Shown: piece by piece, positions 734 through 4,059 of the stretch
How positions within the stretch are numbered: the stretch's first letter is position 1
How the letters are laid out: each line of letters opens with the position of its first letter
Virus record (IMG/VR): IMGVR_UViG_2695420714_000014
Reading direction: 5' to 3' (one strand)
Source of the DNA: a virus
Taxonomy: Duplodnaviria; Heunggongvirae; Uroviricota; Caudoviricetes
DNA: 4,059 bases
Program-made: the position numbers and the translations under genes
The notes under the pieces: model-generated
What the model saw: only the letters and a program-made list of their open reading frames with translations
What the model was told of the DNA's origin: nothing
The model's database searches: none

Positions 734-1048
734 ATGCTACATGATCACGTGGCAGAATGTCTGGAGAAAAAAGGACTGTACCGGAGAGCAGCTGAACGAT
801 GGGCAAAAGTGATGGTACAGCTAAGTGATGACCAGAAAAGAAAAGTGGCGGCACAGAAACGAGCAGAGTGTTTGCGTAAGGCGCGCCGGACTCCGGTTTC
901 ACCGGTGAACCTGACCGAAATAAAACAAGCGGTCAACAGACTACATTCTGAGTTGGGAATGGGATTTGAAGAGCGGCGGGTATTCCGACGATATAAAGGG
1001 ACAGGAGAACAGAATACGTCCGGAAACGCGCGGTCAAAAAAATGCTAA
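734..1048 (+). CDS. PerC-family transcriptional regulator (Pch-like), 104 aa
   Basis: ORF MLHDHVAECLEKKGLYRRAAERWAKVMVQLSDDQKRKVAAQKRAECLRKARR... The N-terminal EKKGLYRRAAERW motif matches the conserved (E)EKGL(W/Y)RRAA.RW motif I recall for PerC of the EPEC EAF plasmid and the prophage-borne Pch homologues of EHEC. Strong RBS GGAGG at 723-727, 6 nt before the ATG. Size (104 aa) fits Pch-type proteins. Family assignment is from memory, not a search. Confidence 0.6.
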   Translation: MLHDHVAECLEKKGLYRRAAERWAKVMVQLSDDQKRKVAAQKRAECLRKARRTPVSPVNLTEIKQAVNRLHSELGMGFEERRVFRRYKGTGEQNTSGNARSKKC

Positions 1049-1129: not shown

Positions 1130-1354
1130 TTAAGTAAACCTGTCTGAACAGGTGCTCTGGTCGTGTTTGTCTTTGTTGGGTACAAATTGAGAATATTTTT
1201 CATTAATTAATCTTCTTCTGCAGGCTTCAATAACCCACGCTGAAAAATTACCTGAACCTTTCAGGTCAAGAGCGATGTTAATTTGTTCAATTATCTGGTT
1301 TGGAAATCGGATGTTGCGGGTTGTTGTTCTGCGGGTTCTGTTCTTTGATGACAT
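1130..1354 (-). CDS. YlcI/YnfO-family small protein (DUF3950), 74 aa
   Basis: ORF MSSKNRTRRTTTRNIRFPNQIIEQINIALDLKGSGNFSAWVIEACRRRLINEKYSQ... This resembles my recollection of E. coli K-12 DLP12 YlcI and Qin YnfO, which sit immediately upstream of the noh (Nu1-homologue) genes in the opposite orientation, exactly the arrangement here. Function unknown; the basic N-terminus followed by an IRFP beta-strand-like segment hints at a ribbon-helix-helix-like DNA binder (speculative). Confidence 0.65.
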   Translation of the reverse strand: MSSKNRTRRTTTRNIRFPNQIIEQINIALDLKGSGNFSAWVIEACRRRLINEKYSQFVPNKDKHDQSTCSDRFT

Positions 1355-1509
1355 AATGTTGCCCCGTATTCAGTGTTGCTGATTTGTATTATCTGAAGTT
1401 GCTTTTACGCTAATTTGATGCAGATCAATTAATACGATACCTGCGTAATAATTGATTATTTCTCGTGGTTTGATGGCGTACACACATGTCGTGATAAACC
1501 TCATGTAGA

Positions 1510-1524
1510 TGATAATTATTATCA
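1510..1524. promoter_or_regulatory. Perfect 7-1-7 palindrome TGATAAT-t-ATTATCA (Fur-box consensus) upstream of cosQ
   Basis: Bases 1510-1524 read tgataat t attatca, an exact match to the 7-1-7 Fur-box consensus TGATAATnATTATCA. The 17-bp span 1509-1525 is palindromic except for its central base. That the sequence matches is certain; that it is a functional Fur or other protein site is not. Confidence 0.3.
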
Positions 1525-1531
1525 TTTTCGT

Positions 1532-1538
1532 GGGTCCT
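1532..1538 (+). other. cosQ (terminase nicking-termination element)
   Basis: GGGTCCT lies 24-30 bp upstream of the cosN nick, the same sequence and offset I recall for lambda cosQ. The flanking sequence (gggtcctttccggcgatccgacaggttacg) matches my recollection of the lambda right end. Confidence 0.55.
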
Positions 1539-1556: not shown

Positions 1557-1578
1557 TTACGGGGCGGCGACCTCGCGG
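1557..1578. other. cosN (terminase nicking site), with the 12-nt cohesive end GGGCGGCGACCT at 1562-1573
   Basis: The sequence ...gacaggttacg|gggcggcgacct|cgcgg... matches the lambda cos junction as I recall it (right end ...GACAGGTTACG, left end GGGCGGCGACCTCGCGG...). Predicted nicks are top strand between 1561 and 1562, bottom strand between 1573 and 1574. The Nu1 start codon is 190 bp downstream of the left end, versus 191 in lambda. Confidence 0.85.
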
Positions 1579-1611
1579 TTTTTCACTATTTATGAAAATT
1601 TTTCAGGGAAA

Positions 1612-1725
1612 ATCGTGTCGGTACTTCTCGAATATAACTTTTTGTTTTTCTTTAATATTGCATCCGTAAAGGTCCGACATGAAAGTGTCCGAAAATGCCT
1701 TTTTCTGGCGTTTTCATGTCGGGCC
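1612..1725. promoter_or_regulatory. cosB-like terminase small-subunit binding region: three R-like repeats plus an I1-like AT-rich tract
   Basis: Related motifs at 1612-1622 (atcgtgtcggt, direct), 1671-1682 (ggtccgacatga, inverted) and 1714-1725 (tcatgtcgggcc, direct). The reverse complement of the middle site matches the third site at 11 of 12 positions. Offsets from the left genome end (~51, ~110, ~153) and the direct/inverted/direct pattern mirror lambda R3, R2 and R1. The AT tract 1631-1660 (aatataactttttgtttttctttaatattg) resembles the lambda I1 IHF-site region at the equivalent position. Confidence 0.6.
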
Positions 1726-1750
1726 TTGTATTTGATAATGGGTTGTTTTC

Positions 1751-2299
1751 ATGAAGGTTAATAAAAAGAGGCTTGCCGAAATTTTCAACGTGGACCCGCG
1801 GACGATTGAACGCTGGCAGTCTCAGGGACTCCCTTGCGCCTCCAAAGGTAGTAAGGGCATTGAATCTGTATTTGATACTGCCATGGCAATTCAGTGGTAT
1901 GCGCAGAGGGAAACTGATATCGAAAACGAAAAGCTCCGCAAAGAACTGGACGATTTGCGTGCGGCAGCGGAGTCAGATTTACAACCCGGCACCATTGACT
2001 ATGAACGCTACCGGCTCACAAAAGCGCAGGCAGATGCGCAGGAACTGAAAAATGCCCGTGAAGACGGAGTAGTGCTGGAAACTGAACTGTTTACCTTCAT
2101 TCTACAACGTGTGGCACAGGAGATTTCGGGGATACTTGTGCGTGTGCCGTTGACATTACAGCGTAAATATCCGGACATTTCACCATCACACCTTGATGTG
2201 GTGAAAACTGAAATCGCGAAAGCCTCCAATGTTTCAGCTAAGGCCGGTGAAAACGTGGGCGGGTGGATCGATGATTTCAGACGCGCAGAAGGCAGCTAA
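1751..2299 (+). CDS. nu1: Terminase small subunit Nu1 (gpNu1 homologue), 182 aa
   Basis: [106 protein letters not shown]... aligns along most of its length with recalled lambda gpNu1 (MEVNKKQLADIF...RTIQNWQEQGMP...KG.E...D.A..I.WYAERD.EIENEKLR...[29 protein letters not shown]...), including the N-terminal winged-HTH DNA-binding region. The C-terminal ~25 aa diverge from lambda. Confidence 0.95.
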
Positions 2300-4059
2300 T
2301 GCAGCCGGTGCGATAGCTACAGGGCTTTTATCTCTCATTATTCCTGTTCCACTGACGACAGTTCAGTGGGCCAATAAACATTATTACCTTCCTAAAGAGT
2401 CGTCTTATACCCCGGGGCGGTGGGAAACACTGCCGTTTCAGGTTGGCATCATGAACTGTATGGGCAACGATCTGATTCGCACGGTTAACCTGATTAAATC
2501 TGCCCGTGTTGGTTATACAAAGATGTTGCTGGGAGTGGAGGCTTATTTTATTGAGCATAAATCACGCAACAGCCTTCTTTTTCAGCCCACGGACTCAGCT
2601 GCTGAAGATTTTATGAAATCTCATGTTGAGCCAACGATAAGGGATGTTCCTGCATTGCTGGAGCTGGCTCCATGGTTCGGAAGAAAACACCGCGATAATA
2701 CGCTCACCCTGAAGCGTTTTTCCTCCGGTGTGGGTTTCTGGTGTCTGGGGGGAGCGGCAGCAAAAAACTACCGTGAAAAATCCGTGGATGTGGTTTGTTA
2801 TGACGAGCTTTCCTCGTTCGAACCGGATGTTGAAAAAGAGGGTTCGCCAACCCTGCTGGGGGATAAACGTATTGAGGGCTCTGTATGGCCAAAATCCATT
2901 CGCGGCTCGACGCCTAAAATCAAAGGCTCCTGCCAGATCGAAAAAGCCGCTAACGAGTCGGCACATTTCATGCGTTTTTATGTGCCCTGTCCGCACTGTG
3001 GGGAGGAGCAGTATCTGAAATTTGGCGATGATGCCTCGCCTTTCGGTCTTAAGTGGGAGAAGAATAAGCCAGAAAGTGTTTTCTACCTTTGTGAGCATCA
3101 TGGCTGTGTGATCCATCAGTCTGAGCTTGACCAGAGTAACGGGCGGTGGATCTGTGAAAACACGGGCATGTGGACCCGTGACGGCCTGATGTTTTTCAGC
3201 GCCCGGGGTGATGAAATTCCGCCGCCGCGCTCCATCACTTTCCATATCTGGACGGCGTACAGTCCGTTCACCACCTGGGTACAGATTGTCTATGACTGGC
3301 TGGATGCACTGAAAGATCCCAACGGCCTGAAAACCTTTGTGAACACCACGCTGGGCGAGACCTGGGAAGAGGCTGTGGGCGAAAAACTCGATCACCAGGT
3401 ACTGATGGATAAGGTTGTGCGTTACACGGCGGCGGTGCCTGCCCGGGTGGTTTATCTGACGGCGGGCATTGACTCGCAGCGAAACCGTTTTGAGATGTAT
3501 GTCTGGGGATGGGCTCCGGGAGAGGAAGCCTTTCTGGTGGATAAAATCATCATTATGGGGCGTCCCGATGAGGAAGAGACGCTGTTACGTGTGGATGCGG
3601 CGATCAACAAAAAATACCGCCATGCAGACGGAACCGAAATGACTATTTCCCGTGTCTGCTGGGACATCGGGGGGATCGATGGCGAAATCGTTTATCAGAG
3701 GTCAAAAAAACACGGTGTTTTCCGGGTGCTGCCGGTAAAAGGCGCATCTGTCTATGGCAAGCCGGTGATCACCATGCCAAAAACCCGCAATCAGCGGGGC
3801 GTGTATCTGTGTGAAGTGGGGACGGACACCGCAAAAGAAATTCTCTATGCCCGTATGAAAGCCGATCCCACGCCTGTGGATGAAGCCACGTCGTATGCCA
3901 TCCGTTTTCCTGATGATCCGGAGATTTTTTCGCAGACAGAGGCGCAGCAACTGGTCGCGGAAGAGCTTGTGGAGAAGTGGGAAAAAGGAAAGATGCGTCT
4001 GCTGTGGGATAACAAAAAGCGGCGTAACGAAGCGCTGGACTGCCTGGTGTATGCCTACG
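2271..4059 (+). CDS. A: Terminase large subunit A (gpA homologue), N-terminal 596 codons; 3' end lies outside the window
   Basis: Hand translation from ATG 2271 (frame 3) runs to the window end with no stop: [57 protein letters not shown]...[15 protein letters not shown]...VDVVCYDE...[26 protein letters not shown]...[14 protein letters not shown]...[17 protein letters not shown]...[12 protein letters not shown]...YLTAGIDSQ...[12 protein letters not shown]. It is collinear with recalled lambda gpA, and Y46, K76 and E179 fall at the same residue numbers as the lambda ATPase-centre residues. The start overlaps the nu1 stop by 29 bp, as in lambda (~26 bp). Not in the ORF track because it has no in-window stop. 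Confidence 0.95.

Follow-up and report, generated by a model that had tools for sequence, protein, structure and literature searches.

A predicted Fur operator beside cosQ in a lambda-type prophage of Escherichia coli

Published Fur sites of K-12 prophages and their position at cos

Strong clusters of Fur sites have been described upstream of two prophage genes of E. coli K-12, nohB and nohA (Chen et al., 2007; PMC2189734). The nohB site (the gene, located in DLP12, is now named nohD) reached 25.3 bits at position 579824 of U00096.2 and ranked third in the genome-wide table, while the nohA site in the Qin prophage reached 22.3 bits at position 1634624, 233 bp upstream of the gene. Both were described as clusters of 25–28 bp composed of three to four overlapping sites (PMC2189734). 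An oligonucleotide with the nohA site was gel-shifted by 150 nM Fur, and nohA was classed as a potential promoter under a permissive 4-bit model (Chen et al., 2007; PMC2189734). According to the citations given in the same paper, nohB had been found with a Fur titration assay (Stojiljkovic et al., 1994) and a nohA fragment had been obtained by in vivo selection (Vassinova and Kozyrev, 2000). Later work classed nohA as Fur-repressed (Myers et al., 2013), and nohB is listed in reviews among the Fur-regulated genes. Transcriptional control is the reading of the noh sites that is taken in the Fur-regulon literature.

Among the subsites of the lambda-type cos site, cosQ was defined as 7 bp by the Feiss laboratory (PMC4669245), and only cosQ, cosN and I2 were named as requirements for termination (PMC4669245, PMC4856287), I2 being located between cosN and cosB (PMC4856287). 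Here, we analysed a 4,059-nt stretch of phage DNA (hereafter the window), which matches a prophage in the chromosome of E. coli S1-IND-01-A with 100% identity and in which a Fur-box palindrome lies directly beside cosQ. A sequence-only reading of the window was not aware of a role for this palindrome. Comparison with K-12 corrected that view. The DLP12 palindrome (NC_000913.3, 580594–580608) is identical to that of the window, with 27 bp identical around it, and lies 6 bp from cosQ with its centre 233 bp upstream of nohD. The Qin palindrome (NC_000913.3, 1636593–1636607) is identical to that of lambda and likewise lies 6 bp from cosQ, with its centre 233 bp upstream of nohA; one central, non-specified base distinguishes the Qin and lambda boxes from the window box. 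Between the two genome versions the coordinates shift by 1976 and 777 bp, and each shift is the same for the gene as for the site. Since the K-12 palindromes fall at the coordinates of Chen et al. (2007), the published nohA and nohB Fur sites are the cos-adjacent palindrome, and the element is thus already known, with the gel shift of nohA and the cited in vivo titration or selection for the two sites as experimental background.

The words “cos” and “prophage” are both missing from Chen et al. (2007; PMC2189734), and a search for Fur combined with cos site, cosQ or terminase retrieved no open paper making the link, which appears to be undescribed in the open literature searched. As the element itself already stands in the Fur-regulon literature, the main yield of the present analysis is the correction of the view that no role had been described. 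Possibly new are the recognition that the nohA and nohB Fur sites make up the left margin of the lambda-type cos module, that such a site is present in lambda too, and that the box is an optional cassette rather than a packaging signal.

Two minor points concern the published K-12 data. Table 4 of Chen et al. (2007) puts the nohB site at −133, while the coordinate given there, 579824, is 233 bp upstream of the gene; the value −133 is probably a typographical slip or reflects a different start annotation. In addition, a ChIP-seq summit obtained with an FNR antibody is located at Qin position 1634625 of U00096.2 (about 1636600 in NC_000913.3), 1 bp from the nohA Fur site (Myers et al., 2013). 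The spacing of the Qin box, TGAT-N7-ATCA, is unlike the FNR motif TTGAT-N4-ATCAA. Ten FNR peaks coincide with Fur sites (Myers et al., 2013), and such peaks may reflect something other than FNR binding.

Sequence of the Fur box and its surroundings in the window

The palindrome TGATAATTATTATCA agrees with the 7-1-7 Fur motif TGATAATNATTATCA at 15 of 15 positions, as the sequence-only reading had proposed, and is the sole exact match in the whole window. When up to three mismatches were allowed, four matches were found against 0.17 expected, a number that was reached in none of 200 shuffles; the four include the box and a match overlapping it. On the minus strand, positions 1529 to 1511 match the classical 19-bp Fur consensus GATAATGATAATCATTATC at 17 of 19 positions, and two overlapping matches (16/19 and 15/19) are present on the plus strand. 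The four hexamers of the array at 1505–1529 score 3, 6, 6 and 5 out of 6. On the basis of the overlapping consensus matches and the hexamer array, the site is therefore a cluster of approximately 25 bp, which fits the size of 25–28 bp published for nohA and nohB. The box thus shows the sequence characters by which Fur operators are recognised (the 19-bp consensus, the 7-1-7 motif, or at least three GATAAT hexamers), and Fur very probably binds it. The earlier placement next to cosQ was right, while the accompanying distances of about 8 bp to cosQ and about 38–52 bp to the cosN nick were each off by one: the gap to cosQ is 7 nt, and the box lies 37–51 bp upstream of the top-strand nick.

Table 1. 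Coordinates of the features in the window
Feature	Position	Strand	Basis or remark
Rz end, with embedded Rz1	..268	+	Rz frame
PerC-family regulator	734–1048	+	Pfam PerC, E 4e-44
DUF3950 (YlcI/YnfO family) gene, diverging from the box	1130..1354	-	Pfam DUF3950, E 1e-17
Extended Fur-site cluster GTAGAT-GATAAT-t-ATTATC-ATTTTC	1505..1529		four hexamers
Core 7-1-7 Fur box TGATAAT-T-ATTATCA	1510..1524		exact match
cosQ (GGGTCCT), packaging-termination subsite	1532..1538	+	identical to lambda cosQ
cosN cohesive-end sequence GGGCGGCGACCT	1562..1573	+	top-strand nick 1561/1562, bottom-strand nick 1573/1574
I2 and cosB region (terminase small-subunit binding)	1574..1750	+	position, similarity to lambda left end
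nu1, terminase small subunit (Nu1 family)	1751..2299	+	Pfam Phage_Nu1, E 3e-81
A, terminase large subunit gpA	2271..4059, cut by window end	+	Pfam GpA_ATPase and GpA_nuclease

The cos features of the window (Table 1) were anchored on phage records: GGGTCCT is annotated as cosQ in the phage 434 record OL657227, and the linear records of lambda, 434, phi80 and N15 end at ...GTTACG or show the 12-nt overhang there, which places cosN. The nu1 gene is the ortholog of nohA and nohD, the target named in the Fur literature, and the centre of the box lies 234 bp upstream of it. The window therefore shares with the two K-12 sites a box centred 233–234 bp upstream of a Nu1-family gene and 6–7 bp left of cosQ. 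It differs from DLP12 and Qin in being a prophage that looks intact, has complete nu1 and A genes and comes from another E. coli strain, and the cos-adjacent setting differs from the published treatment of the nohA and nohB sites as promoter sites of K-12 genes.

With classical Fur operators such as those of iucA, fhuF, ryhB and fepD-entS, the window box has in common a consensus-level sequence, an array of several hexamers and an occasional duplication. Those operators consist of 19-bp boxes, 7-1-7 motifs or hexamer arrays that overlap a promoter, whereas the window box overlaps no recognisable promoter and is located at the edge of a phage packaging site, not before an iron-metabolism gene. 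A host Fur operator on a lambdoid prophage is also known from Stx1 phages, in which a Fur box at the stx1 promoter makes the toxin iron-regulated. That box is found at another locus, between Q and the lysis genes and ahead of stxA1, and the promoter under its control is defined.

Other identities of the palindrome were examined and rejected. As a structural hairpin, it would have an all-AT stem of 7 bp with a folding energy of −3.4 kcal/mol (z −1.4), and 17 of 200 shuffles fold equally well. An intrinsic terminator was dismissed owing to the weak all-AT stem, and a terminator scan called none at the box. Neither is it an IHF site, I2 or R4, as no match to WATCAANNNNTTR with at most one mismatch occurs at 1500–1540 and I2 is on the far side of cosN.

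The region between the lysis genes and cos contains further features. An ORF for an Rz1-type lipoprotein (MRELKMKLCVLMLPLVVSAC..., with lipobox) is located at 21–206 on the plus strand in the +1 frame of Rz, the usual spanin arrangement. The gene for the PerC-family transcriptional activator forms a moron that separates the lysis genes from cos. Upstream of it, at about 560–700, is an unusual tract of about 140 bp that is G/T-rich and dense in T-runs, and downstream, at about 1088–1112, are a hairpin and a T-run. Homologues of the DUF3950 protein are annotated as YlcI/YnfO in E. coli genomes.

Conservation beside cosQ and relation to the cos subsites

As stated in the sequence-only reading, lambda has a near-identical palindrome at the same place: TGATAATCATTATCA is found at 48452–48466, within gatgataatcattatcac. 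The box or close variants occupy this place also in 434, phi80, N15, HK225, an Stx1a phage and several PhiR phages. The DNA further left of the box is unrelated among these phages, and BLAST matches of divergent phages to the window start exactly at the first base of the box. Conservation was quantified with a survey pattern that fixes only cosQ and cosN (GGGTCCTTTCCG-N14-TACGGGGCGG) and leaves the box unspecified, thereby avoiding ascertainment bias. Scans with this pattern gave 120 IMG/VR loci and 31 GTDB genome loci, which after removal of duplicates corresponded to 136 distinct sites in 38 clusters of unrelated left flank.

A box with at most three mismatches was present in 25 of the 38 independent left contexts and absent from the other 13. 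The conservation among cos phages that the sequence-only reading had suggested was borne out for phages and many prophages alike. In the 25 box-bearing clusters, it always ended 3–7 bp from cosQ (mode 5), and the hosts included Escherichia, Citrobacter, Kluyvera, Kosakonia, Buttiauxella and Dryocola. Information content among the 25 representatives was 1.3–2.0 bits at the Fur-informative positions (1–5, 7 and 9–14) and fell to 0.74–0.82 bits at the central N, at position 6 and at the outer position 15. Conservation across the 25 contexts extended to the flanks TGyAA (left) and TTT (right), giving a block of approximately 24 bp in which these flanks complete the outer hexamers of the Fur array. 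Within the 60-member lambda-type cluster, the box varied less than its surroundings, with a minor-allele fraction of 0.023 as against 0.051 for the left flank and 0.108 for the spacer that separates the box from cosQ. Palindromic covariation was uninformative: the outer T/A pair is changed to C/G in N15-type boxes, but many sites alter one arm only. The 86-bp segment comprising box, cosQ and cosN occurs, unannotated, in 3821 of 5426 complete E. coli genomes (approximately 70%), with up to seven copies per genome.

Two contexts have more than one box within 75 bp left of cosQ. In L153, a Buttiauxella MAG, two perfect TGATAATCATTATCA boxes are 26 bp apart, and in L133 (Citrobacter meridianamericanus), a second Fur-like box is located upstream of the cos-proximal one. 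Such duplication is typical of Fur operators.

Six GTDB contigs assigned to non-enteric taxa (L134, L136, L138, L144, L145 and L149; Chromatiales, Oceanobacillus, Pseudomonadales, Leeuwenhoekiella, Neobacillus and Shewanella) are 100% identical to the right end of lambda over 173–300 bp, and one Shewanella contig is 48,542 bp long. These are almost certainly contamination of the assemblies with lambda control DNA.

The box might have no selected function in the phage, being a hitchhiking or recombination-boundary sequence, or the site of another protein, to which Fur binds incidentally. Its dispensability in one third of the contexts and the mosaic junction between box and cosQ in some phages are compatible with this. 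We nevertheless consider it very unlikely, given that conservation tracks the Fur motif position by position in 25 unrelated contexts from several genera, that the most frequent variants are the exact Fur consensus, that the box is duplicated in L153 and L133, and that the hairpin is weak and the site has no IHF consensus. The feature is real and under selection, and its identification as a Fur box is correct.

The box adjoins the lambda subsites cosQ, cosN, I2 and cosB (R3-I1-R2-R1) and is inherited together with them, at the left edge of the block that lambda, 434, phi80 and N15 have in common; in the phi80 record it is included in a 55-bp feature under the name “cosQ; aka R4 region”. Unlike those subsites, it is missing from one third of otherwise intact cosQ/cosN contexts and from satellites, and it is not on the list of required elements of the Feiss laboratory (PMC4669245, PMC4856287). 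The cos constructs of that laboratory span lambda 48446–182 and always include the box (PMC4856287), and therefore provide no test of it.

A lambda-type cos subsite would be present wherever cosQ and cosN occur, and would co-vary with, or be required by, the terminase type. Neither was the case for the box. Nu1 and gpA genes are located downstream in most of the 13 box-less contexts. Several of these share a terminase type with box-bearing sites, as seen on comparing L015, L026 and L061 with L028, and L024, L042 and L049 with L005. Across the survey contexts, presence of the box correlated neither with terminase type nor with the orientation of the left gene. In the L005-type flank, an unrelated segment of about 75 bp, reaching right to cosQ, takes the place of the box segment, and no relocated Fur box was detected within −600 to +300 of the box-less cos sites.

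L021 and its relatives, which make up the largest box-less group, are islands at tRNA-Pro with a length of about 11 kb that encode an integrase, a primase, SSB, a major capsid protein and decoration proteins and have no large terminase gene, which is a PICI-like satellite layout. The PICI-like L164, an island of E. coli STEC2018-607, is also located at tRNA-Pro, between yejM and yejO; a PerC-family gene was observed in this island as well. In the satellites, cosQ, cosN and I2 hardly differ from those of the phages, and at the position of the phage box, directly against cosQ, they have a terminator composed of a GC hairpin and a T-run (L021, 4120–4160). PICI satellites are packaged by the lambda-like terminase of a helper and are delivered in helper virions (PMC9026076). 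The box-less phages and satellites therefore indicate that cutting, termination and injection do not require the box. Moreover, the spacer between box and cosQ varies by 4 bp, and with it the box turns by approximately 140 degrees with respect to cosQ. Such variation speaks against the box taking part in a stereospecific contact with a protein at cosQ.

The earlier suggestion of an uncharacterised part of cos could consequently not be upheld for an obligatory element, and it is likely that the box is not an obligatory cos subsite. Its absence from 13 contexts, including satellites and sites with the same terminase types, points instead to an optional Fur operator attached to the cos–terminase module. 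A weaker form of the packaging hypothesis is that Fur, or another protein bound at the box, assists as a host factor in packaging or in the handling of DNA ends, for instance by slowing the translocating terminase shortly ahead of cosQ or by binding to the right chromosome end, which is injected first. Such a factor would suit the fixed position 3–7 bp left of cosQ irrespective of what lies further left, the homology of divergent cos phages that starts exactly at the box, and the incompletely understood nature of cosQ-dependent termination (PMC4856287). The same box-less contexts with shared terminase types (within the 13 of 38), the helper-packaged satellites, the 4-bp variation in spacing, and the 7-bp cosQ and short list of termination requirements (PMC4669245, PMC4856287) make it improbable.

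Possible outputs of the operator

A consensus scan for sigma-70 promoters found none overlapping the box on either strand, and manual inspection of −10/−35 combinations at the box on both strands was also negative. The sole promoter-like site found was at 1711–1739, beside the nu1 start. In lambda, 434, DLP12, Qin and the window, a DUF3950 gene points away from the box and starts at a distance of 156 bp. This arrangement would allow the box to act as the operator of a leftward promoter for an adjacent gene expressed in the prophage, here the DUF3950 YlcI/YnfO gene. In about 16 of the 25 box-bearing contexts, on the other hand, the main ORF of the left flank is co-directional; in N15 and phi80 this ORF stops at the box or within it. 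At the box itself, no promoter consensus is present, and 156 bp to a start codon is far for a Fur site that occludes a promoter. We regard a leftward operator as an unlikely explanation. The sequence-only reading had envisaged an operator for divergent transcription into the moron region, which fails in general for the same reason of co-directional left ORFs but may apply in lambda-type contexts such as the window, where the DUF3950 gene is present. From the co-directional left ORFs, it also follows that the function travels with the right-hand, cos–terminase side.

Taken as a whole, an optional iron-responsive Fur operator beside cos, with a transcriptional output, is our preferred explanation, which we hold to be reasonably probable. 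The palindrome would be the core of a high-affinity operator, in which an array of about 25 bp with four GATAAT-type hexamers would offer room for at least two Fur dimers. The lambda-type cos–terminase module would have this operator as an optional cassette on its left edge, and the site is the ortholog of the experimentally identified Fur sites of nohB/nohD (DLP12) and nohA (Qin). Fe2+-Fur would be bound to the site in cells replete with iron and would leave it under iron limitation. The likeliest output would be that of an operator or roadblock for non-antiterminated transcription where the lysis/moron region meets cos-nu1-A, possibly with an additional effect on the divergent DUF3950 gene in lambda-type contexts. 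The terminator found at the same spot in satellites may be a loose functional analogue of such a roadblock. Q-antiterminated late transcription should pass the box regardless. Control of the transcription entering cos-nu1-A, as the specific output, is put forward tentatively. The tight placement at 3–7 bp from cosQ across unrelated left flanks is unexplained by a purely transcriptional role.

The box could alternatively be a Fur decoy, whereby, during lytic growth, hundreds of replicating phage genomes would draw Fur away and so relieve the repression of iron uptake in the host, TonB-dependent receptors included. Fur is present at thousands of molecules per cell, a number against which one cluster per genome at about 100–200 copies is small, and a decoy has no need for a fixed position by cosQ. 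The cluster does rank among the strongest in K-12, and orthologous fragments were recovered by in vivo Fur titration on multicopy plasmids, according to citations in Chen et al. (2007; PMC2189734). Overall, we attribute only a slight probability to titration as the function of the box.

A broader reading would be that host iron status, via Fur, gates a phage process, with lambda-like cos phages carrying for this purpose one of the strongest Fur operators of the E. coli pan-genome at the junction of the lysis/moron region and the packaging/structural operon, at the chromosome end that enters first. Candidates for the gated process are the passage of transcription into the cos–terminase region in lysogens, the relative expression of lysis and morphogenesis functions, how efficiently cosQ-dependent termination works, and Fur titration by replicating DNA. 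This generalisation is speculative and we consider it rather doubtful. Were terminase expression or packaging gated by Fur, the production of phage would depend on the iron status of the host, a matter of interest for Stx and other lambdoid prophages in pathogenic E. coli that live in iron-poor hosts.

The box also has coding properties. Its first bases, TGATAA, provide two in-frame stop codons on either strand. In N15 (L003, about 600–614), the annotated gene 59 ends inside the box, and its homologue in phi80 (L002) ends 9 bp before it.
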